Origin: Nemertoderma westbladi | Taxonomy: Eukaryota > Animalia > Xenacoelomorpha | Assembly (NCBI GenBank): GCA_032718475.1 | Contig: JAUCBJ010000909.1 | Coordinates: 1 to 41,544 of the forward strand | DNA length: 41,544 bases | Direction of reading: 5' to 3' | Shown: one piece after another, positions 1 through 30,977 of the stretch | Position numbering within the stretch: position 1 is the first letter of the stretch | Layout of the letters: each line of letters starts with the position of its first letter | Notes under the pieces: generated by a model | Told to the model about the DNA's origin: nothing | What the model saw: only the letters and a program-made list of their open reading frames with translations | Database searches by the model: none | Made by a program: the position numbers and the translations under genes

Positions 1-3000
1 CACGGATATAGTACAGGTAGGAGACACGGATATAGTACAGGTAGGAGACACGGATATAGTACAGGTAGGAGACACGGATATAGTACAGGTAGGAGACACG
101 GATATAGTACAGGTAGGAGACACGGATATAGTACAGGTGGGAGACACGGATATAGTACAGGTGGAGACACGGATATAGTACAGGTAGGAGACACGGATAT
201 AGTACAGGTAGGAGACACGGATATAGTACAGGTAGGAGACACGGATATAGTACAGGTAGGAGACACGGATATAGTACAGGTAGGAGACACGGATATAGTA
301 CAGGTAGGAGACACGGATATAGTACAGGTAGGAGACACGGATATAGTACAGGTAGGAGACACGGATATAGTACAGGTAGGAGACACGGATATAGTACAGG
401 TAGGAGACACGGATATAGTACAGGTAGGAGACACGGATATAGTACAGGTAGGAGACACGGATATAGTACAGGTAGGAGACACGGATATAGTACAGGTAGG
501 AGACACGGATATAGTACAGGTGGGAGACACGGATATAGTACAGGTAGGAGACACGCATATAGTACAGGTAGGAGACACGGATATAGTACAGGTAGGAGAC
601 ACGGATATAGTACAGGTAGGAGACACGGATATAGTACAGGTGGAGACACGGATATAGTACAGGTAGGAGACACGGATATAGTACAGGTAGGAGACACGGA
701 TATAGTACAGGTAGGAGACACGGATATAGTACAGGTAGGAGACACGGATATAGTACAGGTAGGAGACACGGATATAGTACAGGTAGGAGACACGGATATA
801 GTACAGGTGGGAGACACGGATATAGTACAGGTGGAGCACGGATATAGTACAGGTAGGAGACACGGATATAGTACAGGTAGGAGACACGGATATAGTACAG
901 GTAGGAGACACGGATATAGTACAGGTAGGAGACACGGATATAGTACAGGTAGGAGACACGGATATAGTACAGGTGGACACGGATATAGTACAGGTAGGAG
1001 ACACGGATATAGTACAGGTAGGAGACACGGATATAGTACAGGTGGAGACACGGATATAGTACAGGTAGGAGACACGGATATAGTACAGGTAGGAGACACG
1101 GATATAGTACAGGTGGAGCACGGATATAGTACAGGTGGAGACACGGATATAGTACAGGTAGGAGACACGGATATAGTACAGGTAGGAGACACGGATATAG
1201 TACAGGTAGGAGACACGGATATAGTACAGGTAGGAGACACGGATATAGTACAGGTAGGAGACACGGATATAGTACAGGTAGGAGACACGGATATAGTACA
1301 GGTAGGAACACGGATATAGTACAGGTAGACACGGATATAGTACAGGTAGGAGACACGGATATAGTACAGGTGACACGGATATAGTACAGGTAGGAGACAC
1401 GGATATAGTACAGGTGACACGGATATAGTACAGGTAGGAGACACGGATATAGTACAGGTAGGAGACACGGATATAGTACAGGTAGGAGACACGGATATAG
1501 TACAGGTAGGAGACACGGATATAGTACAGGTAGGAGACACGGATATAGTACAGGTGGGAGACACGGATATAGTACAGGTAGGAGACACGGATATAGTACA
1601 GGTAGGAGACACGGATATAGTACAGGTAGGAGACACGGATATAGTACAGGTAGGAGACACGGATATAGTACAGGTAGGAGACACGGATATAGTACAGGTA
1701 GGAGACACGGATATAGTACAGGTAGGAGACACGGATATAGTACAGGTAGGAGACACGGATATAGTACAGGTAGGAGACACGGATATAGTACAGGTAGGAG
1801 ACACGGATATAGTACAGGTAGGAGACACGGATATAGTACAGGTAGGAGACACGGATATAGTACAGGTAGGAGACACGGATATAGTACAGGTGGGAGACAC
1901 GGATATAGTACAGGTAGGAGACACGGATATAGTACAGGTAGGAGACACGGATATAGTACAGGTAGGAGACACGGATATAGTACAGGTAGGAGACACGGAT
2001 ATAGTACAGGTGGGAGACACGGATATAGTACAGGTAGGAGACACGGATATAGTACAGGTGACACGGATATAGTACAGGTAGGAGACACGGATATAGTACA
2101 GGTAGGAGACACGGATATAGTACAGGTAGGAGACACGGATATAGTACAGGTAGGAGACACGGATATAGTACAGGTGGGAGACACGGATATAGTACAGGTA
2201 GGAGACACGGATATAGTACAGGTAGGAGACACGGATATAGTACAGGTAGGAGACACGGATATAGTACAGGTAGGAGACACGGATATAGTACAGGTAGGAG
2301 ACACGGATATAGTACAGGTGGAGACACGGATATAGTACAGGTAGGAGACACGGATATAGTACAGGTAGGAGACACGGATATAGTACAGGTAGGAGACACG
2401 GATATAGTACAGGTAGGAGACACGGATATAGTACAGGTAGGAGACACGGATATAGTACAGGTAGGAGACACGGATATAGTACAGGTAGGAGACACGGATA
2501 TAGTACAGGTAGGAGACACGGATATAGTACAGGTAGGAGACACGGATATAGTACAGGTAGGAGACACGGATATAGTACAGGTGGAACACGGATATAGTAC
2601 AGGTGACACGGATATAGTACAGGTAGGAGACACGGATATAGTACAGGTGGAGACACGGATATAGTACAGGTGGAGACACGGATATAGTACAGGTAGGAGA
2701 CACGGATATAGTACAGGTAGGAGACACGGATATAGTACAGGTAGGAGACACGGATATAGTACAGGTGGACACGGATATAGTACAGGTAGGAGACACGGAT
2801 ATAGTACAGGTAGGAGACACGGATATAGTACAGGTAGGAGACACGGATATAGTACAGGTAGGAGACACGGATATAGTACAGGTAGACACGGATATAGTAC
2901 AGGTAGGAGACACGGATATAGTACAGGTAGGAGACACGGATATAGTACAGGTGGAGACACGGATATAGTACAGGTGGAGACACGGATATAGTACAGGTGG

Positions 3001-6000
3001 AGACACGGATATAGTACAGGTGGAGACACGGATATAGTACAGGTAGGAGACACGGATATAGTACAGGTAGGAGACACGGATATAGTACAGGTAGGAGACA
3101 CGGATATAGTACAGGTAGGAGACACGGATATAGTACAGGTAGGAGACACGGATATAGTACAGGTGACACGGATATAGTACAGGTAGGAGACACGGATATA
3201 GTACAGGTAGGAGACACGGATATAGTACAGGTAGGAGACACGGATATAGTACAGGTGGAGACACGGATATAGTACAGGTAGGAGACACGGATATAGTACA
3301 GGTAGGAGACACGGATATAGTACAGGTAGGAGACACGGATATAGTACAGGTGGAGACACGGATATAGTACAGGTAGGAGACACGGATATAGTACAGGTAG
3401 GAGACACGGATATAGTACAGGTAGGAGACACGGATATAGTACAGGTAGGAGACACGGATATAGTACAGGTAGGAGACACGGATATAGTACAGGTAGGAGA
3501 CACGGATATAGTACAGGTGGAGACACGGATATAGTACAGGTAGGAGACACGGATATAGTACAGGTGACACGGATATAGTACAGGTAGGAGACACGGATAT
3601 AGTACAGGTGACACGGATATAGTACAGGTAGGAGACACGGATATAGTACAGGTAGGAGACACGGATATAGTACAGGTAGGAGACACGGATATAGTACAGG
3701 TAGGAGACACGGATATAGTACAGGTAGGAGACACGGATATAGTACAGGTAGGAGACACGGATATAGTACAGGTAGGAGACACGGATATAGTACAGGTAGG
3801 AGACACGGATATAGTACAGGTGACACGGATATAGTACAGGTAGGAGACACGGATATAGTACAGGTAGACACGGATATAGTACAGGTAGGAGACACGGATA
3901 TAGTACAGGTGGAGACACGGATATAGTACAGGTAGGAGACACGGATATAGTACAGGTGGAGACACGGATATAGTACAGGTGGACACGGATATAGTACAGG
4001 TAGGAGACACGGATATAGTACAGGTAGGAGACACGGATATAGTACAGGTAGGAGACACGGATATAGTACAGGTGGGAGACACGGATATAGTACAGGTGGA
4101 GACACGGATATAGTACAGGTAGGAGACACGGATATAGTACAGGTAGGAGACACGGATATAGTACAGGTAGGAGACACGGATATAGTACAGGTAGGAGACA
4201 CGGATATAGTACAGGTGACACGGATATAGTACAGGTAGGAGACACGGATATAGTACAGGTGACACGGATATAGTACAGGTAGGAGACACGGATATAGTAC
4301 AGGTAGGAGACACGGATATAGTACAGGTAGGAGACACGGATATAGTACAGGTAGGAGACACGGATATAGTACAGGTGGAGACACGGATATAGTACAGGTG
4401 GGAGACACGGATATAGTACAGGTAGGAGACACGGATATAGTACAGGTGGAGACACGGATATAGTACAGGTAGGAGACACGGATATAGTACAGGTAGGAGA
4501 CACGGATATAGTACAGGTGGGAGACACGGATATAGTACAGGTAGGAGACACGGATATAGTACAGGTAGGAGACACGGATATAGTACAGGTAGGAGACACG
4601 GATATAGTACAGGTGACACGGATATAGTACAGGTAGGAGACACGGATATAGTACAGGTGGAGACACGGATATAGTACAGGTAGGAGACACGGATATAGTA
4701 CAGGTAGGAGACACGGATATAGTACAGGTAGGAGACACGGATATAGTACAGGTAGGAGACACGGATATAGTACAGGTAGGAGACACGGATATAGTACAGG
4801 TGACACGGATATAGTACAGGTAGGAGACACGGATATAGTACAGGTAGGAGACACGGATATAGTACAGGTGACACGGATATAGTACAGGTAGGAGACACGG
4901 ATATAGTACAGGTAGGAGACACGGATATAGTACAGGTAGGAGACACGGATATAGTACAGGTAGGAGACACGGATATAGTACAGGTAGGAGACACGGATAT
5001 AGTACAGGTGACACGGATATAGTACAGGTAGGAGACACGGATATAGTACAGGTAGGAGACACGGATATAGTACAGGTAGGAGACACGGATATAGTACAGG
5101 TAGGAGACACGGATATAGTACAGGTAGGAGACACGGATATAGTACAGGTAGGAGACACGGATATAGTACAGGTAGGAGACACGGATATAGTACAGGTGAC
5201 ACGGATATAGTACAGGTAGGAGACACGGATATAGTACAGGTAGGAGACACGGATATAGTACAGGTAGGAGACACGGATATAGTACAGGTAGGAGACACGG
5301 ATATAGTACAGGTAGGAGACACGGATATAGTACAGGTGGAGACACGGATATAGTACAGGTAGGAGACACGGATATAGTACAGGTGGAGACACGGATATAG
5401 TACAGGTAGGGAGACACGGATATAGTACAGGTGACACGGATATAGTACAGGTAGGAGACACGGATATAGTACAGGTGGGAGACACGGATATAGTACAGGT
5501 AGGAGACACGGATATAGTACAGGTGACACGGATATAGTACAGGTGGGACACGGATATAGTACAGGTAGGAGACACGGATATAGTACAGGTAGGAGACACG
5601 GATATAGTACAGGTGGAGACACGGATATAGTACAGGTGACACGGATATAGTACAGGTAGGAGACACGGATATAGTACAGGTAGGAGACACGGATATAGTA
5701 CAGGTGGGAGACACGGATATAGTACAGGTAGGAGACACGGATATAGTACAGGTGGAGACACGGATATAGTACAGGTAGGAGACACGGATATAGTACAGGT
5801 AGGAGACACGGATATAGTACAGGTGGGAGACACGGATATAGTACAGGTAGGAGACACGGATATAGTACAGGTAGGAGACACGGATATAGTACAGGTGGAG
5901 ACACGGATATAGTACAGGTGGGAGACACGGATATAGTACAGGTGGGAGACACGGATATAGTACAGGTAGGAGACACGGATATAGTACAGGTAGGAGACAC

Positions 6001-9000
6001 GGATATAGTACAGGTAGGAGACACGGATATAGTACAGGTAGGAGACACGGATATAGTACAGGTAGGAGACACGGATATAGTACAGGTAGGAGACACGGAT
6101 ATAGTACAGGTAGGAGACACGGATATAGTACAGGTGGGAGACACGGATATAGTACAGGTAGGAGACACGGATATAGTACAGGTAGGAGACACGGATATAG
6201 TACAGGTAGGAGACACGGATATAGTACAGGTAGGAGACACGGATATAGTACAGGTGGGAGACACGGATATAGTACAGGTAGGAGACACGGATATAGTACA
6301 GGTAGGAGACACGGATATAGTACAGGTAGGAGACACGGATATAGTACAGGTGGAGACACGGATATAGTACAGGTAGGAGACACGGATATAGTACAGGTGG
6401 GAGACACGGATATAGTACAGGTAGGAGACACGGATATAGTACAGGTAGGAGACACGGATATAGTACAGGTGGGAGACACGGATATAGTACAGGTGACACG
6501 GATATAGTACAGGTAGGAGACACGGATATAGTACAGGTGGAGACACGGATATAGTACAGGTAGGAGACACGGATATAGTACAGGTAGGAGACACGGATAT
6601 AGTACAGGTGGAGACACGGATATAGTACAGGTGGAGACACGGATATAGTACAGGTAGGAGACACGGATATAGTACAGGTGGAGACACGGATATAGTACAG
6701 GTAGGAGACACGGATATAGTACAGGTGGAGACACGGATATAGTACAGGTGGGAGACACGGATATAGTACAGGTAGGAGACACGGATATAGTACAGGTGGG
6801 AGACACGGATATAGTACAGGTGACACGGATATAGTACAGGTAGGAGACACGGATATAGTACAGGTGGAGACACGGATATAGTACAGGTAGGAGACACGGA
6901 TATAGTACAGGTGGAGACACGGATATAGTACAGGTAGGAGACACGGATATAGTACAGGTGGAGACACGGATATAGTACAGGTAGGAGACACGGATATAGT
7001 ACAGGTGGAGACACGGATATAGTACAGGTAGGAGACACGGATATAGTACAGGTAGGAGACACGGATATAGTACAGGTAGGAGACACGGATATAGTACAGG
7101 TAGGAGACACGGATATAGTACAGGTGGACACGGATATAGTACAGGTAGGAGACACGGATATAGTACAGGTGACACGGATATAGTACAGGTGGGAGACACG
7201 GATATAGTACAGGTGGAGACACGGATATAGTACAGGTAGGAGACACGGATATAGTACAGGTGGGAGACACGGATATAGTACAGGTAGGAGACACGGATAT
7301 AGTACAGGTGGGAGACACGGATATAGTACAGGTAGGAGACACGGATATAGTACAGGTAGGAGACACGGATATAGTACAGGTGGGAGACACGGATATAGTA
7401 CAGGTAGGAGACACGGATATAGTACAGGTGACACGGATATAGTACAGGTAGGAGACACGGATATAGTACAGGTGGGAGACACGGATATAGTACAGGTAGG
7501 AGACACGGATATAGTACAGGTGGAGACACGGATATAGTACAGGTGGGAGACACGGATATAGTACAGGTGGGAGACACGGATATAGTACAGGTGGGAGACA
7601 CGGATATAGTACAGGTGGACACGGATATAGTACAGGTAGGAGACACGGATATAGTACAGGTAGGAGACACGGATATAGTACAGGTGGGAGACACGGATAT
7701 AGTACAGGTAGGAGACACGGATATAGTACAGGTGGAACACGGATATAGTACAGGTAGGAGACACGGATATAGTACAGGTGGACACGGATATAGTACAGGT
7801 AGGAGACACGGATATAGTACAGGTAGGAGACACGGATATAGTACAGGTAGGAGACACGGATATAGTACAGGTAGGAGACACGGATATAGTACAGGTAGGA
7901 GACACGGATATAGTACAGGTAGGAGACACGGATATAGTACAGGTAGGAGACACGGATATAGTACAGGTAGGAGACACGGATATAGTACAGGTAGGAGACA
8001 CGGATATAGTACAGGTGACACGGATATAGTACAGGTAGGAGACACGGATATAGTACAGGTGACACGGATATAGTACAGGTAGGAGACACGGATATAGTAC
8101 AGGTAGGAGACACGGATATAGTACAGGTAGGAGACACGGATATAGTACAGGTAGGAGACACGGATATAGTACAGGTAGGAGACACGGATATAGTACAGGT
8201 GGGAGACACGGATATAGTACAGGTGGGAGACACGGATATAGTACAGGTGACACGGATATAGTACAGGTAGGAGACACGGATATAGTACAGGTAGGAGACA
8301 CGGATATAGTACAGGTGACACGGATATAGTACAGGTAGGAGACACGGATATAGTACAGGTAGGAGACACGGATATAGTACAGGTGGGAGACACGGATATA
8401 GTACAGGTAGGAGACACGGATATAGTACAGGTGGACACGGATATAGTACAGGTAGGAGACACGGATATAGTACAGGTGACACGGATATAGTACAGGTAGG
8501 AGACACGGATATAGTACAGGTAGGAGACACGGATATAGTACAGGTAGGAGACACGGATATAGTACAGGTAGGAGACACGGATATAGTACAGGTAGGAGAC
8601 ACGGATATAGTACAGGTGGAGACACGGATATAGTACAGGTGGGAGACACGGATATAGTACAGGTGACACGGATATAGTACAGGTGACACGGATATAGTAC
8701 AGGTAGGAGACACGGATATAGTACAGGTAGGAGACACGGATATAGTACAGGTAGACACGGATATAGTACAGGTGGAGACACGGATATAGTACAGGTGGGA
8801 GACACGGATATAGTACAGGTGGGAGACACGGATATAGTACAGGTGGGAGACACGGATATAGTACAGGTGGAGACACGGATATAGTACAGGTAGGAGACAC
8901 GGATATAGTACAGGTGGGAGACACGGATATAGTACAGGTGACACGGATATAGTACAGGTAGGAGACACGGATATAGTACAGGTGGGAGACACGGATATAG

Positions 9001-12000
9001 TACAGGTGACACGGATATAGTACAGGTAGGAGACACGGATATAGTACAGGTAGGAGACACGGATATAGTACAGGTAGGAGACACGGATATAGTACAGGTA
9101 GGAGACACGGATATAGTACAGGTTGGAGACACGGATATAGTACAGGTGGGAGACACGGATATAGTACAGGTGGAGACACGGATATAGTACAGGTGGGAGA
9201 CACGGATATAGTACAGGTGGAGACACGGATATAGTACAGGTAGGAGACACGGATATAGTACAGGTGGACACGGATATAGTACAGGTAGGAGACACGGATA
9301 TAGTACAGGTAGGAGACACGGATATAGTACAGGTGGGAGACACGGATATAGTACAGGTGACACGGATATAGTACAGGTAGGAGACACGGATATAGTACAG
9401 GTGGGAGACACGGATATAGTACAGGTGACACGGATATAGTACAGGTAGGAGACACGGATATAGTACAGGTGGGAGACACGGATATAGTACAGGTAGGAGA
9501 CACGGATATAGTACAGGTTGGAGACACGGATATAGTACAGGTGGGAGACACGGATATAGTACAGGTGACACGGATATAGTACAGGTAGGAGACACGGATA
9601 TAGTACAGGTGACACGGATATAGTACAGGTAGGAGACACGGATATAGTACAGGTAGGAGACACGGATATAGTACAGGTAGGAGACACGGATATAGTACAG
9701 GTGGGAGACACGGATATAGTACAGGTGGGAGACACGGATATAGTACAGGTAGGAGACACGGATATAGTACAGGTAGGAGACACGGATATAGTACAGGTAG
9801 GAGACACGGATATAGTACAGGTAGGAGACACGGATATAGTACAGGTAGGAGACACGGATATAGTACAGGTAGGAGACACGGATATAGTACAGGTGGGAGA
9901 CACGGATATAGTACAGGTAGGAGACACGGATATAGTACAGGTGGGAGACACGGATATAGTACAGGTGGGAGACACGGATATAGTACAGGTGACACGGATA
10001 TAGTACAGGTAGGAGACACGGATATAGTACAGGTGGACACGGATATAGTACAGGTAGGAGACACGGATATAGTACAGGTGACACGGATATAGTACAGGTA
10101 GGAGACACGGATATAGTACAGGTGACACGGATATAGTACAGGTGGAGACACGGATATAGTACAGGTAGGAGACACGGATATAGTACAGGTAGGAGACACG
10201 GATATAGTACAGGTGACACGGATATAGTACAGGAGACACGGATATAGTACAGGTAGGAGACACGGATATAGTACAGGTAGGAGACACGGATATAGTACAG
10301 GTAGACACGGATATAGTACAGGTAGGAGACACGGATATAGTACAGGTAGGAGACACGGATATAGTACAGGTAGACACGGATATAGTACAGGTAGGAGACA
10401 CGGATATAGTACAGGTAGGAGACACGGATATAGTACAGGTAGGAGACACGGATATAGTACAGGTGGGAGACACGGATATAGTACAGGTGGGAGACACGGA
10501 TATAGTACAGGTGACACGGATATAGTACAGGTAGGAGACACGGATATAGTACAGGTAGGAGACACGGATATAGTACAGGTAGGAGACACGGATATAGTAC
10601 AGGTAGGAGACACGGATATAGTACAGGTAGGAGACACGGATATAGTACAGGTGGAGACACGGATATAGTACAGGTAGGAGACACGGATATAGTACAGGTG
10701 ACACGGATATAGTACAGGTAGGAGACACGGATATAGTACAGGTAGGAGACACGGATATAGTACAGGTAGGAGACACGGATATAGTACAGGTGGAGACACG
10801 GATATAGTACAGGTGGGAGACACGGATATAGTACAGGTAGGAGACACGGATATAGTACAGGTGGGAGACACGGATATAGTACAGGTAGGAGACACGGATA
10901 TAGTACAGGTGGGAGACACGGATATAGTACAGGTAGGAGACACGGATATAGTACAGGTAGGAGACACGGATATAGTACAGGTGGAGACACGGATATAGTA
11001 CAGGTAGGAGACACGGATATAGTACAGGTGGGAGACACGGATATAGTACAGGTAGGAGACACGGATATAGTACAGGTAGGAGACACGGATATAGTACAGG
11101 TAGGAGACACGGATATAGTACAGGTAGGAGACACGGATATAGTACAGGTAGGAGACACGGATATAGTACAGGTAGGAGACACGGATATAGTACAGGTAGG
11201 AGACACGGATATAGTACAGGTGGGAGACACGGATATAGTACAGGTGGGAGACACGGATATAGTACAGGTGGGAGACACGGATATAGTACAGGTAGACACG
11301 GATATAGTACAGGTAGGAGACACGGATATAGTACAGGTAGGAGACACGGATATAGTACAGGTAGGAGACACGGATATAGTACAGGTAGGAGACACGGATA
11401 TAGTACAGGTAGGAGACACGGATATAGTACAGGTAGGAGACACGGATATAGTACAGGTGGGACACGGATATAGTACAGGTAGGAGACACGGATATAGTAC
11501 AGGTAGGAGACACGGATATAGTACAGGTGGAGACACGGATATAGTACAGGTAGGAGACACGGATATAGTACAGGTAGGAGACACGGATATAGTACAGGTG
11601 GAGACACGGATATAGTACAGGTAGGAGACACGGATATAGTACAGGTGGAGCACGGATATAGTACAGGTAGGAGACACGGATATAGTACAGGTAGGAGACA
11701 CGGATATAGTACAGGTAGGAGACACGGATATAGTACAGGTAGGAGACACGGATATAGTACAGGTGACACGGATATAGTACAGGTAGGAGACACGGATATA
11801 GTACAGGTGACACGGATATAGTACAGGTAGGAGACACGGATATAGTACAGGTAGGAGACACGGATATAGTACAGGTAGGAGACACGGATATAGTACAGGT
11901 AGGAGACACGGATATAGTACAGGTAGGAGACACGGATATAGTACAGGTAGGAGACACGGATATAGTACAGGTAGGAGACACGGATATAGTACAGGTAGGA

Positions 12001-15000
12001 GACACGGATATAGTACAGGTAGGAGACACGGATATAGTACAGGTAGGAGACACGGATATAGTACAGGTGACACGGATATAGTACAGGTAGGAGACACGGA
12101 TATAGTACAGGTAGGAGACACGGATATAGTACAGGTAGGAGACACGGATATAGTACAGGTAGGAGACACGGATATAGTACAGGTAGGAGACACGGATATA
12201 GTACAGGTAGGAGACACGGATATAGTACAGGTAGGAGACACGGATATAGTACAGGTGACACGGATATAGTACAGGTAGGAGACACGGATATAGTACAGGT
12301 AGGAGACACGGATATAGTACAGGTAGGAGACACGGATATAGTACAGGTAGGAGACACGGATATAGTACAGGTAGGAGACACGGATATAGTACAGGTAGGA
12401 GACACGGATATAGTACAGGTAGGAGACACGGATATAGTACAGGTAGGAGACACGGATATAGTACAGGTAGGAGACACGGATATAGTACAGGTAGGAGACA
12501 CGGATATAGTACAGGTGGGAGACACGGATATAGTACAGGTAGGAGACACGGATATAGTACAGGTAGGAGACACGGATATAGTACAGGTAGGAGACACGGA
12601 TATAGTACAGGTAGGAGACACGGATATAGTACAGGTAGGAGACACGGATATAGTACAGGTAGGAGACACGGATATAGTACAGGTGACACGGATATAGTAC
12701 AGGTAGGAGACACGGATATAGTACAGGTAGGAGACACGGATATAGTACAGGTAGGAGACACGGATATAGTACAGGTAGGAGACACGGATATAGTACAGGT
12801 AGGAGCACGGATATAGTACAGGTAGGAGACACGGATATAGTACAGGTAGGAGACACGGATATAGTACAGGTAGGAGACACGGATATAGTACAGGTAGGAG
12901 ACACGGATATAGTACAGGTAGGAGACACGGATATAGTACAGGTAGGAGACACGGATATAGTACAGGTAGGAGACACGGATATAGTACAGGTAGGAGACAC
13001 GGATATAGTACAGGTGACACGGATATAGTACAGGTAGGAGACACGGATATAGTACAGGTAGGAGACACGGATATAGTACAGGTAGGAGACACGGATATAG
13101 TACAGGTAGGAGACACGGATATAGTACAGGTGACACGGATATAGTACAGGTAGACACGGATATAGTACAGGTAGGAGACACGGATATAGTACAGGTAGGA
13201 GACACGGATATAGTACAGGTAGGAGACACGGATATAGTACAGGTAGGAGACACGGATATAGTACAGGTAGGAGACACGGATATAGTACAGGTAGGAGACA
13301 CGGATATAGTACAGGTAGGAGACACGGATATAGTACAGGTAGGAGACACGGATATAGTACAGGTGACACGGATATAGTACAGGTAGGAGACACGGATATA
13401 GTACAGGTAGGAGACACGGATATAGTACAGGTGACACGGATATAGTACAGGTAGGAGACACGGATATAGTACAGGTGACACGGATATAGTACAGGTAGGA
13501 GACACGGATATAGTACAGGTGACACGGATATAGTACAGGTGGAGACACGGATATAGTACAGGTAGGAGACACGGATATAGTACAGGTAGGAGACACGGAT
13601 ATAGTACAGGTAGGAGACACGGATATAGTACAGGTGGAGACACGGATATAGTACAGGTAGGAGACACGGATATAGTACAGGTAGGAGACACGGATATAGT
13701 ACAGGTAGGAGACACGGATATAGTACAGGTGACACGGATATAGTACAGGTAGGAGACACGGATATAGTACAGGTAGGAGACACGGATATAGTACAGGTAG
13801 GAGACACGGATATAGTACAGGTAGGAGACACGGATATAGTACAGGTAGGAGACACGGATATAGTACAGGTAGGAGACACGGATATAGTACAGGTAGGAGA
13901 CACGGATATAGTACAGGTAGGAGACACGGATATAGTACAGGTAGGAGACACGGATATAGTACAGGTAGGAGACACGGATATAGTACAGGTAGGAGACACG
14001 GATATAGTACAGGTAGGAGACACGGATATAGTACAGGTAGGAGACACGGATATAGTACAGGTAGGAGACACGGATATAGTACAGGTAGGGACACGGATAT
14101 AGTACAGGTAGGAGACACGGATATAGTACAGGTAGGAGACACGGATATAGTACAGGTAGGAGACACGGATATAGTACAGGTAGGAGACACGGATATAGTA
14201 CAGGTAGGAGACACGGATATAGTACAGGTAGGAACACGGATATAGTACAGGTAGGAGACACGGATATAGTACAGGTAGGAGACACGGATATAGTACAGGT
14301 AGGAGACACGGATATAGTACAGGTAGGAGACACGGATATAGTACAGGTGACACGGATATAGTACAGGTAGGAGACACGGATATAGTACAGGTAGGAGACA
14401 CGGATATAGTACAGGTAGGAGACACGGATATAGTACAGGTGGGAGACACGGATATAGTACAGGTAGGAGACACGGATATAGTACAGGTAGGAGACACGGA
14501 TATAGTACAGGTAGGAGACACGGATATAGTACAGGTAGGAGACACGGATATAGTACAGGTAGGAACACGGATATAGTACAGGTAGGAGACACGGATATAG
14601 TACAGGTGACACGGATATAGTACAGGTAGGAGACACGGATATAGTACAGGTGGAGACACGGATATAGTACAGGTAGGAGACACGGATATAGTACAGGTAG
14701 GAGACACGGATATAGTACAGGTAGGAGACACGGATATAGTACAGGTGACACGGATATAGTACAGGTAGGAGACACGGATATAGTACAGGTAGGAGACACG
14801 GATATAGTACAGGTAGGAGACACGGATATAGTACAGGTGACACGGATATAGTACAGGTAGGAGACACGGATATAGTACAGGTAGGAAACACGGACATAGT
14901 ACAGGTAGGAGACACGGATATAGTACAGGTAGGAGACACGGATATAGTACAGGTAGGAGACACGGATATAGTACAGGTAGGAGACACGGATATAGTACAG

Positions 15001-15460
15001 GTGACACGGATATAGTACAGGTAGGAGACACGGATATAGTACAGGTAGGAGACACGCATATAGTACAGGTAGGAGACACGGATATAGTACAGGTGACACG
15101 GATATAGTACAGGTAGGAGACACGGATATAGTACAGGTAGGAGACACGGATATAGTACAGGTAGGAGACACGGATATAGTACAGGTAGGAGACACGGATA
15201 TAGTACAGGTAGGAGACACGGATATAGTACAGGTAGGAGACACGGATATAGTACAGGTAGGAGACACGGATATAGTACAGGTGACACGGATATAGTACAG
15301 GTGACACGGATATAGTACAGGTAGGAGACACGCATATAGTACAGGTAGGAGACACGGATATAGTACAGGTGAGACGGATATAGTACAGGTAGGAGACACG
15401 GATATAGTACTGGTAGGAGACACGGATATAGTACAGGTATGAGACACGGATATAGTACAC
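1..15460 (+). repeat. Tandem satellite, 24-bp consensus GGAGACACGGATATAGTACAGGTA with 20-25 bp variants; runs off the left edge of the window
   Basis: Directly visible. The core ACACGGATATAGTACAGGT is nearly invariant; after CAGGT the variants are AGGAG, GGGAG, GGAG, AG, GG or G. Substitutions accumulate near the right edge (e.g. ~14887, 15056, 15411, 15440). All GDTDIVQV and RRHGYSTG ORFs in the track are translations of this unit. Confidence 0.99.
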
Positions 15461-15464
15461 GTAT

Positions 15465-16086
15465 AATTTTTATTTTTGCTTTCATTCTTTAGGTACAAGC
15501 GTTTGAAAAGGTGTCTCCGTCGGTATTGCGCCAGTTACACCGCAGTTATACTTCAACCTTATAGCGATTTGTTGATATTGACGGACAGCGGGCCATGCAA
15601 GGATTCCAAATATGTATCATAATCTGAATTTCGTCGTAAAATAGCTGAGATATGAGCGCTCAAATGTTGCATGATTTAGCATCTGCGCGAGGCTATTTTA
15701 TTCTATTTAATTAGTAATCCATATTCTAGAACACTTTGTTTATATACGAATAGCTACACAATAATATGATTACAAAGTTATTGCATTGTTGCCCAGCTAC
15801 GTATGGGATGAACAACATGTTCTAGAATATTGTGTATTTTTTAATATAATAAAATAACCTTGCGCAGATGTAAAACCATGCAACTTTAGAATGCCCATAT
15901 CTGTGCTGTTTTACGACGAAATTCAGATTGTGATACATATTTGGTATCCTTGCATGGCCAGCTTTCTGTCAATATCAACAAATCGCTATAAGGTTGAAGA
16001 ATAACTGCGGTGTAACTGGCGCAACACCGACGGAGACACCTTTTTCAAACGCTTGTAGCTAAAGAATGAAAGCAAAAATAAAAATT
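15465..16086. mobile_element. Foldback/MITE-like non-autonomous element, ~620 bp, with ~270-bp imperfect inverted arms
   Basis: Left arm AATTTTTATTTTTGCTTTCATTCTTTAGGTACAAGCGTTTGAAAAGGTGTCTCCGTCGGT...ATATTCTAGAACA (15465-~15733) is the reverse complement of TGTTCTAGAATAT...ACCGACGGAGACACCTTTTTCAAACGCTTGTAGCTAAAGAATGAAAGCAAAAATAAAAATT (~15818-16086). No ORF and no clear TSD. Confidence 0.85.
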
Positions 16087-16225
16087 CTAGCTCACCCAGC
16101 AAGGAGGAGGGAGGTGAAACTATCTCTGCTTCAAATTTCATGCTATCACATTAGATTTGTAGAAAAATTTGGGGGTGGGGGGTGGGGGGGGGGGTCCAGG
16201 TACCTGAATAACGACACTATATTCC

Positions 16226-16264
16226 AGGACATGGTGTAGTACAGGTAGGAGACACGGATATAGT
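16226..16264 (+). repeat. Orphan degenerate copy (~1.5 units) of the 24-bp satellite
   Basis: CAGGACATGGTGTAGTACAGGTAGGAGACACGGATATAGT; the last 28 nt match the satellite consensus exactly. Confidence 0.9.
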
Positions 16265-16787
16265 CTATGTAAGACAGACAGACACCAGGGTGTTATCGCC
16301 TAGATCATCATGTATAGTGCGCTAAATAAATACAACAATTATTATTAGTTGGTTTAACACATCTTATGATGTTTTATCATTACTGGATAGACAGGAACGA
16401 AGGGAAGAACTTTCCCGTTCATTGTTCATTATTATTAATTAATCATATAAAATGATATTATACTAAAATGATAAGATTGCACTTCACAAGTAAAAGGTTG
16501 AACGAGTACCTGAATAAAATCGTGTAAAATATCGAGTAAATATACTGTAGTTATGTACAAGGCACGAAAAGAAACCAACACATGTCGAATATTTGTAATG
16601 TACAACAGATTATAATGTGAACTGTGTAGGCGGTAGTGGCTGGGTCAGTTCGCCGTGAAATGAGGAAAGTCGGGTTCGATTGAGAAGTAGTTTAAAATAG
16701 TATTGTGCTTTTGGCTGAATGTACGCCCCCAGGTACCATAGCACTCGTGTAGGAAGTTTGCATCCAGGATACTTTGACGGGATGGGG

Positions 16788-17635
16788 TCAAGTGCACCAG
16801 TCTAGATAGAATGCTCTTGGTAGAGTATGATGAAACAGTAAGGATGGTAGTTCCGGTAGGCTGTAGTGTGATCTAGCAGACTCGTAAAGGTGACCAAGGC
16901 CACTGTACTTGTTCCCACGAATGTAATTCCTGAGTAATGCTATTTTTTGGGAGCATGCGAGTTTCGGGTGCGGTATCTGCGCGATACGAAACAGCTTGCT
17001 GGTACATTCCCTGTATGCATCTAAAATTAAGGGCCTCAGACCCATAGCATTATAAAGCGTGTCGTTGCTGATGTAGCATCCCACGTGTAGAATACTCCTA
17101 AGGCTGACTCTATACGCCGTTTCGATGCGATCCAGTTTAGTTTCACTAAAGCTTCCAATCGAATACACGATCCGATATATGATTGCCGGAAGAGCCAGAG
17201 TTTTCCAGAGAAGTGCGACTATTTCCAACGAGAAATGGTGCGTTGTCCAGCCTTTACTATGGACTTTGATATTTGTTGATTGTTTGAATGATGTCCGAGA
17301 GGTGGGATGGTTCCTTGTTGATGGCAACTCCAAGATAGGTGATGTGTTTAGATTGGCTGTATATGACATTGTTGATGTGGAGGAAGTTTGGTATATTTTT
17401 GGATTTATGTTCATGGCATGCAATCCAGAATATCTTTTTGGGGTCAATTGAGAGATTGATTTTCATTAGCTCGTCGCATATGACATTAGCCAAGTGTTGT
17501 ATAGAAGCTGCGGATCCTCCCATCAGTAGTATGTCGTCAGCAAAAGAATAGCACCCCATGTTTGTGGTATGGACTTTGTGCCCCATTCCAATGGTATTCA
17601 TAATGGAGAATGCGTTCTTTGTAAAGAAGTTAAGG
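16788..17635 (-). mobile_element. Degenerate 5'-truncated non-LTR retrotransposon (LINE), reverse transcriptase C-terminal part, frameshifted
   Basis: ORF 17257-17601(-) has GCYSFADDILL (RT YADD-type motif), LSIDPKK and HITYLGV. Overlapping ORF 16788-17447(-) continues with LWKTLALPAIIY...LDRIETAYRVSLRSILHV...ISNDTLYNAMGL, typical of the post-RT region of LINE ORF2. The 3' boundary (toward ~16400) is uncertain. Confidence 0.8.
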
Positions 17636-17708
17636 ATACTGCTAGAGCTAATAGCTAGATACTGCTAGTGCTAATAGCTGAATACTGCTAGTCCTAATAG
17701 CTCGATAC
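17636..17708 (+). repeat. Three tandem copies of a 23-bp unit ATACTGCTAGWSCTAATAGCTNN
   Basis: Units start at 17636, 17659 and 17682, next to the 5' truncation point of the LINE fragment. Confidence 0.8.
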
Positions 17709-18780
17709 GCAGGTCGTTTGGGGCAGCGGCAGCCAAATTGACAGCAACTACTAACTATGTATTTGGTTAGTTTAAAAAATCGTAATTTGAAATAATTGAA
17801 AACAATAAGGGAAAGGAGCGGGTTACAGTGGCGGTGTTTAACCAAAACAATAAACAAAATTTATCTCAATGCGACCAATTTGTCATGAAGATCACGTTTT
17901 GCATTTGCAGACAATGTGCGTATGATCTGAAAAAAAATTAAGTTTAATTATTTATTTTCCCTATAATCACAAATTGTTTTTTCAAATATACTCGATATTT
18001 CTCAGTGTATTATAAGAAACATATATTTACTGATTATTGTTATTTACTTTACTGCAATTTTAACATACATCACGCAAATAAGATTATCACTTTTGATTAA
18101 AGTAATAACATTGTAAATCATTAATTTTCATCTTCATTTTCAGCAACATTAATACTGCAGGTCTTGAGTTAATTATGTTTTCAATAAGACTTTCTTCCGG
18201 TTTTTCTTCCATTCCATTATTCTAAGCTAAGCCCAGTCCCGATGTATTTACTGTAATTTGAAGATTAAAATACACGATTAATAAGACTACAGCACTACTT
18301 CTGTAAATAAACATAGTGCAGATGTAAGACTACCTATATATTATTTATACGAAGAGAAACATTAAGCAAATCCTTGAAATCTTGTGAAGTCCACGAGTAA
18401 AAAAATCTCAGCTTCTTTAGCAACCAAAAATGTATTTTTTTCACGGCAGGTCTGTGTTTTAGTTATGGTTCGAGGAAAAATTATTTATTGGACCATACTC
18501 TAGTATTAGGTGTACGTGTGGGTGTATACGTTGTTGTGTAGCGTTAATACTAATTAATATGATTGCTATTAAAGTAATTTATTGGATAAAATCATCTTTA
18601 ATATCTTACTTATCCACAGTTTGGGGACTCAATTCTATTCTATTCTTTTTAGTCTATTATTGTTGGTAGGCCTACAATGGGTAATGTAGGCCTTATATTG
18701 TAGTGCCTGTTATAATACAGTATAATATGTATCGCAGTGTCTATTATTTGCTTTATCAGTGTTTATTGTTTGTATTTCAG

Positions 18781-18870
18781 ATCCTGATGTTCCATGGTGC
18801 TAATCCAAGTCGCGCTGACCACAGGGGAAACTATCCACTGCATTTAGCTCTCCAGTCCAGGAACACCCAG
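18781..18870 (+). CDS. Internal coding exon (90 nt, phase 0/0) of an ankyrin-repeat protein gene
   Basis: Acceptor TTTATTGTTTGTATTTCAG ends at 18780; donor CAG|GTACGA at 18871. Translation ILMFHGANPSRADHRGNYPLHLALQSRNTQ fits the ankyrin consensus (LL..GA.vn..d..G.TPLHLA). Confidence 0.88.
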
Positions 18871-19790
18871 GTACGAAACACCAGAAACCCCTTTGGGTGG
18901 GTAAACAGTGACACCTAGTTACATAACACAAGATACCCCTTTGGGTGGGCAAATAGTAACACCCAGATACGAAACACCAGAAACCCCTTTGGGTGGGTAA
19001 ACAGTGACACCTAGTTACATAACACAAGATACCCCTTTGGGTGGGTAAATACAGTAGTAACACCCAGATACGAAATACCAGACACCCTTTTGGGTGGGTA
19101 AATAGTAACACCCAGGTACGAAACACCAGAAACCCCTATGGGTGGGTAAACAGTGACACCTATTTACATAACACAAGATACCCCTTTGGGTGGGCAAATA
19201 GTAACACCCAGATACGAAACACCAGAAACCCCTTTGGGTGGGTAAACAGTGACACCTAGTTGCACAACACAAGATATCCCTTTGGGTGGGCAAATAGTAA
19301 CACCCAGATACGAAACACCAGAAACCCCTTTGGGTGGGTAAACAGTGACACCTAGTTGCACAACACAAGATACCCCTTTGGGTGGGCAAATAGTAACACC
19401 CAGATACGAAACACCAGAAACCCCTTTGGGTGGGTAAACAGTGACACCTAGTTGCACAACACAAGATACCCCTTTGGGTGGCTAAATAGTAACACCCAGA
19501 TACAAAACACCAGACATCCCTTTGGGTGGGTAAACAGTGACACCAAGTTACAAAATACCAGACACCCGTTTGGGTGAATGCAGTAACACCCCGGTACGAA
19601 AACCAGACACCCCTTTGGGTGGGTAGACAGTAACACCCCGGTACGAAACACCAGACACCCCTTTGGGTGGGTAAACACATAGTAACACCCCGATACGAAA
19701 CACCAGACACCCCTTTGGGTGGGTAAACAAACAGTAATACCCCGATACGAAACACCAGACACCCCATTGTGCGGGTATGAACACCCAGCT
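18862..19790 (+). repeat. 48-bp minisatellite (~19 units), alternating A/B types (96-bp dimer) in the 5' two-thirds; overlaps the exon end and splice donor
   Basis: A = AACACCCAG(G/A)TACGAAACACCAGAAACCCCTTTGGGTGGGTAAACAGT; B = GACACCTAGTT(A/G)CA(T/C)AACACAAGATACCCCTTTGGGTGGGCAAATAGT. Unit starts at 18862, 18910 and 18958 give the 48-bp period. Confidence 0.95.
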
Positions 19791-20231: not shown

Positions 20232-20380
20232 ATTAATCCCGGTGTTGTCCGCTTGCTGCTCGGTAGCGGAGCCAGGGTCAATGTTCTCAATTCGGATTCC
20301 GTCACACCCCTATCTTTTCTCATATCCCGTAACTGTGACAGCGGGCTGCAGCATAACAACTTGGACGATGTTTTTCTCAG
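20232..20380 (+). CDS. Next coding exon of the ankyrin-repeat gene (149 nt, phase 0/2)
   Basis: Acceptor ...CAACTATTACAG ends at 20231. Translation INPGVVRLLLGSGARVNVLNSDSVTPLSFLISRNCDSGLQHNNLDDVFL continues the ankyrin repeat in phase (VVRLLL..GARVN....TPL). Donor CAG|GTGTGT at 20381; an alternative GTAAGA lies at 20385. Confidence 0.85.
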
Positions 20381-20507
20381 GTGTGTAAGAAAGTTATTAT
20401 TGTGAGATTTAAGCTAAATAGAGCTTAAACACTTACCAACCACAATTTATCTCGTAATATTAGTCGTCGTCCTTTATCCGTAAATGCTGTATTTTCCTGA
20501 GTGGCTC

Positions 20508-23808: not shown

Positions 23809-24825
23809 CTACGCTTGTGACTGAGTTGGTGATGTTGTACGACTCTCCTCGGGTAGACTCACCATAAGGACTCCCCCGCCCTCAGTCTGGGCCCCCTCCC
23901 CCGCGGGGTACAGCACGCTGTACGAGGGTGGCTTCACATCCCCCCTTACCCCCGTCTGTCCCCCGGCTAACCTCGCCTTTGCGGCCTCCCGGCTGCGATA
24001 CTTTCTGTAGCAGTTGAAAGACATTTTAGCGAGGACTACAAATCCAATTATAATGAATATGGATACCATGACCCCAATGAGTATGTATAGCCAGCTGGTT
24101 GACCCCCCTTCTCTAACGTCGCATTCAGTATTCCCACTGTTTGCTAAGTTCCAGGTAACTCGTTTTCCTAATAAGTCCTTAATGGTACCGACAATGGCGA
24201 GTATTTCCTTCACGAATCCGCGCAGTTGAGTGTCGCGGTCTTCACTCTGGTTGAATTTGTAGGGTTCACGAATCCCAGCGAGCTGTCTGGAGTCGTCGTT
24301 CACTATAGAATGGAGAGTAGAGGTTCGATTCCCTGTCTCGACCACGAAGTAGCCTTCCAGCAGCTTACCTTCTTTGGTCAGGACACCGGCGGCCAGTAAG
24401 ACCATGGTCTTGTAACCGCAGTTCGTACAACTAAAGTCCCATTTTTCTCGGATAATTTTCGCGAAATCTACGATTTGTTCGCGGTTCTTTTTGTTTGCCT
24501 GCTCTTCGAATTCGTATTGATTACCGTTGGTGAACAGGACACTCAGTATAGGTACCGCTATGTGAACGTAATCTACCGGTTTCACACACGCCGACTGTCC
24601 ACACGGACAGTATGTATCGTGTGACAGCGACACCAATCGGTTGTCTACAAGCGTGCGGCTGTGCGGTTCTAGAACCTTCTTGGGGTCGCATATGAGACCG
24701 GGATTGTCGAGTCCACATTCCGAGGGCGCCTCCTGGGGACTGGGGTATTCCGAGGTCGCTAGAACCAGGTAGCTGATCATAATGAGTAAGTCGCTGGTCG
24801 TAAACAAGTAGAACAGTGTCGCCAT
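23809..24825 (-). CDS. Intronless 338-aa type I membrane protein, MOLO-1-like (modulator of levamisole receptor-1 / TPM-domain family), antisense within the ankyrin gene intron
   Basis: Long uninterrupted ORF that is GC-richer than its flanks. Hydrophobic N-terminus; YPSPQEAPSECG...GLICDPKKVL and FAKIIREKW...C...MVLL resemble the YPNP..C..ICDPD.lL and FA..l...W motifs I recall for the MOLO1 family; transmembrane segment WLYILIGVMVSIFIIIGFVVLA followed by basic residues; cytoplasmic PPSY motif. Confidence 0.82.
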   Translation of the reverse strand: MATLFYLFTTSDLLIMISYLVLATSEYPSPQEAPSECGLDNPGLICDPKKVLEPHSRTLVDNRLVSLSHDTYCPCGQSACVKPVDYVHIAVPILSVLFTNGNQYEFEEQANKKNREQIVDFAKIIREKWDFSCTNCGYKTMVLLAAGVLTKEGKLLEGYFVVETGNRTSTLHSIVNDDSRQLAGIREPYKFNQSEDRDTQLRGFVKEILAIVGTIKDLLGKRVTWNLANSGNTECDVREGGSTSWLYILIGVMVSIFIIIGFVVLAKMSFNCYRKYRSREAAKARLAGGQTGVRGDVKPPSYSVLYPAGEGAQTEGGGVLMVSLPEESRTTSPTQSQA

Positions 24826-25252
24826 AGTTCATAACATCAGCATAGAAAACAGGTTATTTTAAAGCACCCCACTACCGGTACCTCCAACGGGCAATAATGG
24901 TTAGGTCCCAGACAACCAGAATATGAGAATCATTACCGGAACTGGGATATCATCGTCAATTAGATTGAATCGGAAAATCATATGTATGTATGTGTATAGG
25001 CTAATATTGTGATATACCGGTACGAATGTATAAATTTAATGTTTATAGGGGTATAGCTGTGCTGTATACTGGTATAATACCAGTACCCGGTATACCTATC
25101 CGATATCAATGTATTAATAGTTCCTATACAATTCTGCAATTATGACCTGAAAAACATCATTATCACAGTATCATTTTCAATTACTTACATACATTTCCAG
25201 TAATTTACATAGGGCCTACCTAATTACCACAATGCAGTCCTGCCTGATGCAT

Positions 25253-27244: not shown

Positions 27245-28086
27245 CCCATGTGAAGAATACCAGACTTTCTGCCGTTATATTTCACTTTGCAATTACCCCC
27301 ATGTGAAGAATACCAGGTTTTCACCAAAAACACAGATTACAGGAGGGCTGAATCTAACCAAAACAATAAACGAATTAGTATATGTGTACAGGTTAGGCTA
27401 TAAGAAAGGCTACAGGAAAGGCATGGACAGCCTTGAATAGGCTTTCCAGGATTTGGAAGTCACCGAGAATTAATCGGAAACTTAAGGTCCGATTATTTAG
27501 AGCAGCAGTAGTTCCAGTACTCCTCTATGCAGTCTATGGGAGTCCATCCTGGGCTCTAACTGCTGAGGACACCAAATCTCTGGATGGCACATTCACAAGA
27601 ATGCTACGCCGGGTTCATTGTGTCAAGTACATGCACACATCTCCAACCAGACACTATATAGCATTGGAGGTGTCAAACAAAATCGCCTCCGCTTTGCAGG
27701 ACATTGCTTTCGCCGTGAGGACCAGCCAGTTCATAATCTTGTACTTTGGCAGCCTCATGGAGTGAATAAGCATGGTGGACAGCCCATGACTTTCTTGAGA
27801 CGCATCTTAAAAGGACACTGGTCTTGAAGATGCAGATGATCTAGCAAATGTCATGGGTGATAGGGAGTTGTGGCGGCGCAATTTTGTCGACAAGCCGGCA
27901 CAGCATTCTTAAAAATGCAGCTGCAATGCAGCATGCCGATACTAGTAGTAGTAGGCTATAAGACAGAAATAAGCGGTATAAAACACTTAATAAAGATATA
28001 TTTAAAAAAATATAAAATCTTCATATATAAAATTCCAATAAAAAGTCGACCGAAAAGTTAAATCCTGGTATTCTTCACATGGGCGG
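27245..28086. mobile_element. MITE-like element with probable 9-bp TSD, interrupted by an RTE insertion
   Basis: CCCATGTGAAGAATACCAG(G) at 27245 and 27298, inverted as CCTGGTATTCTTCACATGGG at 28064-28083; GATAGGGGG flanks at 27236-27244 and 28087-28095. Confidence 0.55.
27406..27951 (+). mobile_element. 5'-truncated RTE-type LINE with (TAG)n tail and 12-bp TSD
   Basis: Frameshifted translation LNRLSRIWKS..LKVRLFRAAVVPVLLY..SWALT..LDGTFTRMLRRV / HISNQTLY / RLRFAGHCFR..LVLWQP is typical of the RTE ORF end. Tail TAGTAGTAG; TAGGCTATAAGA duplicated at 27394-27405 and 27952-27963. Confidence 0.88.
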
Positions 28087-28855
28087 GATAGGGGGTGGGG
28101 GGACTTTCAACGCAATAATAATGATCCCTCTCCATGAAATTCGACACAAATAACAGTTCGATTACTCCCATAAATAAAACTATAACCTGTTCTATTGTGT
28201 TCCATTTATTGTTTTGGTTAGAAATACGTGTCACTATAATCTGCTCATTCAGTCATTCGTGTCATTTGACATTTCCCTAAATTGAGAATTTAACATTGAA
28301 GCGAAATATTCATTCACCAACAGACCAAGATGGGATTTGCGAACAGTTAGCAGTTGCTGATAATTGAAACTATTATAAATTAAACAAAGTTGTTCTAGAG
28401 TTACTACAGTCTGACAGTGCTATGGTTGTTGGCAGACATTACATGGATTGGAAATATCACCAAACGCATTCCTTATGACGTATATATTTCTCAATGTTTG
28501 GATCAATTATCGATGGGGCTCCTCTCCCAAATTGTCTATTTGACGATTTATAGAATTTAACCTGTATCTTGCGGTTATAACCCAGCGCCATCGTAATAGG
28601 TACCGCCTATAATATATATGATACACCTACTGGAATATATATTATATATATAGTTCTGTAGTTATGCCTAAAGCGTTCCAGGTTCTGCTGGCTAGCTGGC
28701 TTATAAAAAGTACTGTTTAGACATATCACAAAAGATAGACAAGTAGACTTGGCGAGCCTTTATTGGTAATAATAATAAGCACACAATTTATGCAATAGGC
28801 AATCAACACGCAGCTAGCAACTTTTGAAATTTGGTGATGCTTGAATCTATCTATG

Positions 28856-29455
28856 CAGTCCTGCAAAAGCGGAGGCGGCTCCGCCCTAGAGTCAAGCTAG
28901 GGGAGATTGATGGAACACCTCCAATTTTGTATAGAGTCTGATTAGAGATGTGTTCATTGTACTTGAAACAATGAACCCGGCGCAGCATTCTTGTGAAAGT
29001 ACCATCCAGATATATGGTATCCTCAGCAGTTAGAGCTCCAGCATGGACTCCCATAAGAGTAATGGCACTATTGCTGCTCTAAACAATCGAACCTTAAGGT
29101 TATGTTTTATTCTATGGTCCCATAGTCTGTCCAAATCATGGACAGACTATTTAACGCTGCCCATGCCTTCCCCTTACGTATCCGAAGGTCTTCACCTGAC
29201 TTTCTGATCCACGATCCCAAGTAACAGAAGTCATACACGTGCTCAAGAAAGCCCCGTTGCGTTTGTCCGTAGAGCTTGTGCCCTTACGATCAGACATTTC
29301 TTGAGGGCTGTCTAGGTTGACTGTGATTATTTTGGTCTTCTTGGAATTTACAAAAAGACCAACACTAGAAGCAACCTGCTCCAATTGGCAGAGAAGCCTT
29401 TGGCTGTTTGGGCTCCCTCTAGTGATTCTGACAGTACCTCTAAGTCATCAGTGAT
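28856..29455 (-). mobile_element. Second, diverged RTE-type LINE fragment in the opposite orientation
   Basis: Minus-strand pieces LEQVASSVGLFVNSKKTKII, DFCYLGSWI, IRKGKAWAALN and ALTAEDTIYLDGTFTRMLRRVH...HISNQTLY match the 27406-27951 copy. Confidence 0.85.
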
Positions 29456-30230: not shown

Positions 30231-30977
30231 CTATTCATCATAACTAAGCATACATCCACTACTGGAATCGTCATAGACTCAAATTGCATCTCACTGAAGC
30301 TCGCAGATGATGCCAATGTTCTCTATTCCCATAACAATGCAAATGTTATTTCTGCGGTTCTCTCATCGAAACTAAATAATATATTCATGTGGGCAACCGA
30401 CAATAAACTATCACTAAACTTTGGAAAAACAAAGAGTATTCTGTTTGGGACCCACCAACGCGTGAATTCTGCAGAACCATTAGACATCGAGTGTGCGAGT
30501 AAAAAAATAGAACAACAAACGTCAGTGAAATATCTTGGCTGTATGTTGAAATCGTCTCTATCAGGAAATCCTATGGCATCGAAGGTGATTAAACGAGGCA
30601 ACTCGACTCTTCGTTTTCTTTATCGTAAGAGTGCCCTGCTTGATTATGAAACCAAACGGTTGTTATGTAACACCCTGATTCAACCTCACTTAGACTTTGT
30701 TGCATCATGCTGGTATTCCAGTGCCAGCAAACAGCTAAAAAGCCAATTACATGCACTTCAACGAAAGTGCGTGCGATTTTGTCTGAGTTTACACCGGCGA
30801 GAGCACGTAACCGTCCAGCACTTCGCGGAGATGGCGTGGCTACCCTTAGACTACCGTATCGACCAAACTATCGTCACCCATATGTATCGCATTACTCGAG
30901 AGCTTTCGCCGCCTTACCTGAGATCCCTCGTTACACTCAATACGGCCAACATCAATCTAAGAGGCAACACGCACAGG
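30231..30977 (+). mobile_element. L2/CR1-group LINE, RT C-terminal half (5' part of an interrupted copy)
   Basis: LKLADDANVLY..., then ORF 30387-30986: W..DNKLSLNFGKTKSILFG, VKYLGC.L, LCNTLIQPHLDF...WY, LQRKCVRF, WL, PPYL. Confidence 0.9.

Follow-up and report, generated by a model that had tools for sequence, protein, structure and literature searches.

How is a gene spliced when the end of one of its exons is followed by more than 15 kb of near-identical donor-like sites, and where do such sites come from? The question is raised by contig JAUCBJ010000909.1 of the Nemertoderma westbladi assembly GCA_032718475.1, whose positions 1 to 41,544 (the whole stretch analyzed here, called the window below) start within a minisatellite with a 24-nt unit and continue into predicted exons of an ankyrin-repeat gene. 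We consider it likely that this array is a locus-specific minisatellite, founded when the final 24 nt of an ankyrin exon were duplicated in tandem and since grown to about 660 copies, with splicing taking place at the end of the first copy; such splicing would leave the protein unchanged.

The 24-nt array and its left end

Tandem Repeats Finder (TRF) placed the array at 1-15463 of the plus strand with a period of 24, 659.8 copies and 95% matches, and 660 unit anchors were counted; the window begins within the array, so its left end lies outside. When the array was split on CAGGT, 657 CAG|GT sites were obtained and the canonical 24-mer accounted for 445 of the 656 spacings, which agrees with the initial annotation, where a satellite of more than 15 kb with several hundred units and hundreds of near-identical donor-like sites had been described. 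In frame +1 the unit reads VGDTDIVQ without a stop, and each unit would copy the last 8 codons of the predicted upstream exon. The lack of stops in the unit alone is unremarkable, since two of its three plus-strand frames and two of its three minus-strand frames are stop-free; moreover, the in-frame stop-free runs are short (mean 4.2 units, maximum 26) because 126 of the 656 spacings are not a multiple of three.

After a second anchor was added, 213 of 659 units were found to be variants, belonging to 19 types, and in 207 of these 213 (15 types) the changes were confined to positions +1 to +10 after the junction. Elsewhere the unit hardly varies, which speaks against random sequencing error, and a variant with a 4-nt deletion was also found in short-read contigs; the clustering at +1 to +10 may reflect mutation bias or selection. 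AG|GT was retained in 657 of 659 units and lost in two, a deletion removing the GT being seen once, so the array combines head-to-tail units within the 10 to 100+ bp range with a donor sequence reiterated across the copies. The motif AGGT[AG]nG reaches 33.7 per kb in the array, compared with 0.32 per kb elsewhere in the window, and no variant donor was better than the canonical GTAGGA when compared at +3 to +6 with the commonly given U1 consensus.

The left end was probed by matching 60 bases of canonical units to the assembled contigs of four DNA runs (X1-X4). All 8 matching records of X3 were listed; three high-depth records cover 24 of the 24 canonical 31-mers, and the cycle of units has one entering and two leaving records, with balanced depths (33.7 for the entry, 20.4 and 14.2 for the exits). 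Run X4 had no contig on the unit and no cover of 17954-18870, and was not used as evidence. The entry contig (record 19 of X3, 246 nt, depth 33.7) joins 194 unique letters to 52 letters matching the units, and no gap is seen in it across the exon copy and the following unit. Its match starts one base ahead of GTA GGA, so that a complete unit precedes the first CAG|GT and the first copy belongs to the exon over its full 24 nt. The initial annotation had divided the unit into some 20 exonic and 4 intronic nucleotides, a division that has to be abandoned: the unit equals the last 24 nt of the exon, and the reiterated donor is thus exon-derived, its intronic half GTAGGA being the copied Val-Gly codons. 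Both exits carry exactly 30 unit-matching letters, as expected from a 31-mer graph, and the 52 letters of the entry contain one difference, which by the same logic is placed at -4 from the donor; the difference would be the third base of a Val codon and synonymous.

The 30 visible letters of the flank are open only in the GDTDIVQ frame, the other two of the three having stops, and translate as YAQVLNEAAL followed by VGDTDIVQ, with L-x-x-A-A in ankyrin register with the exon at 18781. We scored these peptides with an ankyrin profile made from 1,400 ungapped repeats of 150 proteins (the best 150 of a representative search). At the 8 profile positions that immediately precede exon 18781, VGDTDIVQ obtained 7.4 bits, exceeding 74% of real repeats, and this score was attained by 9 of 31,356 stop-free 8-mers of non-array window DNA. 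The 18-mer of flank and unit obtained +5.4 bits in the expected register, a score attained by 30 of 17,891 null 18-mers, and -7.0 bits or less in each of the other 24 registers. Of 50,424 windows, about 2% scored as high as the last 6 flank residues and 9 had L..AA in exactly this register, a motif picked after being seen; among the fetched proteins one natural repeat standing first in its run, LREAALIGD, has this motif at the same place as the flank. The evidence is of moderate strength, and an upstream ankyrin exon at the left end of the array, its end overlapped by the first unit, is likely though not proven. Thus the exon ending in GDTDIVQ that the initial annotation had placed left of the window is probably real, and the join of this peptide to exon 18781 as ankyrin sequence stands. 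As a separate observation, the exon holds TTG|GTAGGA 24 nt ahead of its first donor; splicing at this cryptic donor would remove VGDTDIVQ without shifting the frame.

The X3 contigs point to a single locus (all canonical 31-mers in three records, one entry, two exits), bearing in mind that a filter may hide contigs. A dispersed satellite family was rejected on these grounds, and the same 24-mer forming arrays at many loci, which the initial annotation had named as the case that would speak against it, was not seen in X3. Regarding the size of the array, an X1 contig equals 17751-18870 with 0 differences, and in that run the local depth is exceeded about 370- to 380-fold by the canonical depth steps, to be compared with 299-446 copies per canonical 31-mer in the window. 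In X3 the canonical depth is 11 to 59 times the single-copy depths, and X2 and X3, which come from one sample, disagree; depth is not copy number, and these figures hint at an array that lies mostly within the window and at much shorter alleles in other individuals.

The right end of the array and the rest of the window

The array is followed by a high-copy, non-coding element resembling a DNA transposon (15460-16238, no strand assigned), recognized by its inverted repeats, its termini and the loose ends of contigs. It has long internal inverted arms (15462-15710 and 15840-16089) and ends before TA, its left arm lacks a counterpart of 16090-16236, and loose ends behind 16238 were found in 133, 113, 126 and 22 contigs of X1-X4, respectively. 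Judged from these features, the element appears to interrupt the last units of the array, whose cut-off 3' end (16237-16268, plus strand) lies behind it and is, over 16237-16264, the sole unit-like piece outside the array, covered by record 18 of X3 (16215-16454). The last unit of this piece has 21 of 24 matches, ends in CTAT instead of ACAG and carries C at -4, the same position at which the exon copy would differ from the array. It is followed by GTAAGA (16269-16274, plus strand) in exact register with the array donors, -3 and -1 having decayed; we infer that this is a candidate ancestral donor, now behind the transposon.

Two other readings of these units were tried and rejected. A 24-nt microexon at 16245-16268 has no pyrimidine tract before it. 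Recursive-splicing sites are defined by a polypyrimidine tract before AG|GT, and the pyrimidines of the unit amount to 7 of 24.

Farther into the intron, a remnant resembling the reverse transcriptase of a long interspersed nuclear element (LINE) lies on the minus strand (16788-17664) with raised contig depth; 17260-17664 matched RVT_1 of Pfam at E 2.4e-6, below the cut-off, and 16791-17462 matched no Pfam family. A short high-copy repeat at 17720-17860 also has raised contig depth, with loose ends at 17839, and its 29-nt core recurs at 25825, 25894 and 27346.

The predicted ankyrin-repeat exon at 18781-18870 (plus strand) is a 90-nt open frame flanked by AG and GT, with acceptor TTTGTATTTCAG, donor CAG|GTACGA and translation ILMFHGANPSRADHRGNYPLHLALQSRNTQ; it has phase 0-0, and its start in phase 0 is as initially annotated. 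It matched Ank_4 of Pfam at E 0.0058, below the curated cut-off, and 348 PDB sequences at E<=10, the best 60 of the 348 being all ankyrin or designed repeat proteins. A second donor-spanning minisatellite, with a 48-nt unit and 19 copies (18858-19777, plus strand), overlaps approximately the last 9 nt of this exon; when the copies were read by eye, G|GT was kept in 4 of 19 and CAG|GT in 2, the real donor and a copy at 19107. Two donor-spanning arrays in one gene imply that such arrays arise repeatedly here. The next predicted ankyrin-repeat exon (20232-20384, plus strand) starts in phase 0 with INPGVVRLLLGSGARVN, its donor lying at 20384 or 20380, and TRF found no array at its end. It matched Ank_4 at E 0.041 and ankyrin sequences of the PDB, and its Atlas clusters are generic ankyrin ones of low recognition value. 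Each single exon is below the Pfam cut-off; as in an ankyrin-repeat gene, ankyrin repeats occur in successive exons of matching phase.

When 84 plus-strand frames, exon 20232 and 83 of the 99 frames of at least 38 amino acids, were scanned with Pfam, ankyrin was detected in exon 20232 alone and in none of the 83 frames downstream of 20390; the 16 frames omitted were those opposite the nested gene described below, retroelement and repeat frames, and 39145-39264. Searches for orthologues returned no candidate with 18751-18870 and 42 candidates with 20232-20384, none at E<=0.1; the representative search gave 7,486 matches, the best 150 being proteins of 37-52% identity, matched in several stretches in almost every case, with no evident orthologue, and none of 595 pattern matches in metagenome contigs was confirmed.

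Other features of the window lie downstream. An intron-less open frame of 339 amino acids on the minus strand (23809-24828) carries a MOLO1 domain (E 2.6e-13, above the cut-off) and a hydrophobic stretch near its C-terminus, and an extension of the ankyrin gene to the right would make it a nested gene; a search for its relatives gave 2,149 candidates, of which none reached E<=1e-5. At 27397-27827 and 28851-29444 lie two fragments of a LINE-like element in inverted orientation (DUF6451, E 4.8e-6). A frame that resembles a reverse transcriptase by eye, with no Pfam match, seems to be broken into two parts (30231-30986 and 33438-33719) by an inserted stretch of about 2.5 kb that has GC-rich repeats close to either end (31014-31223 and 33230-33500). 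A third array, with a 46-nt unit and 18 copies (39190-40033, plus strand), begins within an AG-preceded open frame (39160-39264) and has a divergent first unit; it is possibly another exon-end array.

Origin of the array, splicing and other explanations

The starting point of the proposed origin, unique in-frame ankyrin-like sequence that runs into the units with a full unit before the first CAG|GT, is seen in the DNA of one run; the steps that follow are a reconstruction. The exon codons TTG GTA GGA GAC (GGTAGGAGAC) would have resembled the donor CAG|GTAAGAC (GGTAAGAC) standing 24 nt on; the first 24-nt duplicate may have come from slippage, or from an unequal exchange, between the two look-alikes. 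Because the duplicated piece begins with GT, the second copy would have supplied a new donor right after the intact exon, and the old donor would have been shoved into the intron. Ordinary minisatellite turnover could then have amplified the unit and spread a few variants, the transposon would have severed the last unit, and the old donor would have decayed. The data on F7, ABCA7 and the lancelet mirage minisatellites lead us to prefer use of the first donor: the most upstream donor would win, with perhaps a few percent use of the second, and we regard first-donor use with such minor leakage as the probable outcome. The array is likely to be tolerated rather than a designed switch.

Several observations count against this account. 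The 10 flank residues taken together score -2.0 bits, attained by 4,518 of 27,991 (16%) stop-free null peptides, and a profile of first-in-run repeats gave them no higher score (-2.0); YAQV departs from the GNTP consensus. Of the 194 unique letters 30 are visible, from one of the four runs, no entering contig was listed in X1 or X2, and no single record bridges the upstream exon and the array of the window. The contig depth of exon 18781 in X3 is 74.3, twice that of the entry (33.7). The two exits, one shared by X1, X2 and X3 and the other seen in X3 alone, continue into DNA of which the first 17 letters are absent from the window; a search of the window with the exit flanks gave 0 matches, and one match with three mismatches at chance level. 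Other haplotypes probably end differently, and a paralogue may be involved. Taking GTAAGA as the old donor requires that several of the last 4 nt of the end unit have changed, and no orthologue backs it. Finally, the donor-scanning data come from mammals, and human 6-16 and CBS are reported to use two further donors (PMC1557585).

The last of these points bears on the best of the other explanations, a working ladder of donors, in which the coding 24-mer would have made its own substitute for the donor, left the ancestral one more than 15 kb into the intron, and grown into the longest donor-reiterating array of the cases found, with alleles of tens to more than 660 units. Later donors would add VGDTDIVQ units in frame and escape nonsense-mediated decay (NMD), and the length of the array would dial this addition or the skipping of the next exon, which being of phase 0-0 can be skipped without loss of frame. 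The 24-nt unit is stop-free in the coding frame, no gap separates exon copy and next unit in the entry contig, and AG|GT is kept in nearly all units, the neighbouring 48-nt array keeping G|GT in 4 of its 19 copies; however, high retention of GT is expected in a young, homogenized array, and no variant donor improves on the canonical one at U1 positions +3 to +6. The ankyrin profile gives 49.4 bits with one unit and 46.9-47.2 with two to four, to which it simply realigns, and 41.6 with none. The initial annotation had suggested that units could be added until a variant shifts the frame, and this is arithmetically possible, but for a few units only, given the 126 frame-breaking units and the runs of 4.2 units on average, 26 at the longest. 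The reports on other genes point both ways: longer repeats in ABCA7 go with more skipping of the next exon and two extra donors are used in 6-16 and CBS, whereas one-unit retention in ABCA7 is about 2% independently of length, and the identical, frame-keeping downstream donors of F7 remain unused. We thus hold a working ladder of this kind to be unlikely.

It is much less probable still that the gene is dead or barely expressed and that neither array is under splicing constraint. Two successive donors both bear arrays, and the 83 plus-strand frames scanned downstream of 20390 hold no further ankyrin exon, both points in its favour; however, both visible exons are open, with matching phases and intact AG and GT, and the one difference of the entry contig appears to be synonymous.

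Intron gain of the type described by Rogers, in which a duplicated exonic GT...AG 24-mer became a new intron, was also considered, since the unit has GT at its start and AG at its end and lies entirely within the exon in its first copy, and multiple duplication of a 24-bp exonic AGGT segment is reported to have made introns in two fission-yeast genes (PMC4974935). In that case the acceptor should come from the last duplicate; here it is separate from the unit and unlike it, lying at 18780, 2.5 kb beyond the last unit, with 9 of 24 identical positions and a pyrimidine-rich tract of its own (15 of 24, versus 7 of 24 in the unit), and the array ends at the donor-like GTAAGA rather than at the next coding exon. 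Intron gain is therefore rejected and has a very slight probability.

An unrelated satellite or an over-expanded assembly with an ankyrin fit by chance, for which one could cite that the window starts inside the array with the left end outside and that the canonical depth in X3 is just 11 to 59 times single-copy depths, is equally improbable and together with a dead gene fits least, given the 9 of 31,356 null peptides reaching the 8-mer score, the sole entry from open ankyrin-like DNA, the X1 depth steps near the copies in the window (depth not being copy number) and the 4-nt deletion variant in short-read contigs.

Comparison with known donor-spanning repeats

Duplication of a formerly exonic GT that becomes a donor is a likeness to intron gain by duplication, but there is no new intron here and the acceptor is separate and older-looking, so the presumed effect is donor replacement and intron extension. 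In duplicated human genes, De Grassi and Ciccarelli reported 27 intron modifications by repeats at exon-intron boundaries (PMC2812944). The novelty implied by the initial annotation finds no support, since the arrangement belongs to the described class of splice-donor-spanning minisatellites known from F7, ABCA7 and the lancelet mirages. In the open-licence literature we found no larger donor-reiterating array, no genome-wide survey of invertebrates and no closer case of a duplicated donor.

In intron 7 of F7, a 37-bp variable number tandem repeat (VNTR) carries identical donors which are functional, only the most upstream being used, and 6-16, CBS, LMNB2 and PDGF are further donor-repeat cases cited in the same report (PMC1557585). 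As is likely here, the first unit spans the exon end and the donor is reiterated, and in genes of the F7 type, as that report presents them, splicing uses solely or mainly the most upstream donor. However, F7 has 5 to 9 copies and the cited genes about 26 at most, compared with about 660 in our array, and the F7 unit consists of 4 exon and 33 intron nucleotides, while the first copy here is exon throughout its 24 nt.

The "mirage" minisatellites of the lancelet Adh3, troponin C, globin and PGBD5 genes, with splicing reported to be undisturbed (PMC3087553, PMC3902484), share with this locus tandem copies of exon-intron boundaries at several places and terminal units outside homogenization, and their haplotypes differ in length. 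Their units differ in size and number, with 3 to 6 units of about 150-160 bp in the globin genes and units of 10-72 bp in Adh3, and the accounts given in those papers describe no array of hundreds.

The value of the locus is that of an extreme test case of a known class, with about 657 near-identical donors over 15 kb. The unit would not trigger NMD, so a preference for the first donor could be read without the bias of the frameshifting units of F7 and ABCA7. If GTAAGA is indeed the old donor, the locus records how a donor was replaced by copied codons with the protein unchanged; if alleles span tens to hundreds of units, they would form a natural dose series of donor load versus skipping of the next exon.

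ABCA7 is the closest in scale. In its intron 18 a donor repeat with a 25-bp unit has between about 12 and 427 units and reaches 10,678 bp (PMC5954066; PMC13747324), with about 2% one-unit retention whatever the length and skipping of the next exon that grows with length (PMC5954066). There too the first two bases of the unit are the donor GT. In ABCA7 the second donor is reported to be used at a low level, and length polymorphism is strong. In contrast, the unit described here is 24 nt, in frame, stop-free and copied from coding sequence, so leakage would add 8 residues and not a premature stop as in ABCA7, and the array has at least 660 units and at least 15.4 kb. What is distinctive of this locus is therefore its length, which exceeds the largest ABCA7 allele described in those reports, together with its in-frame unit.

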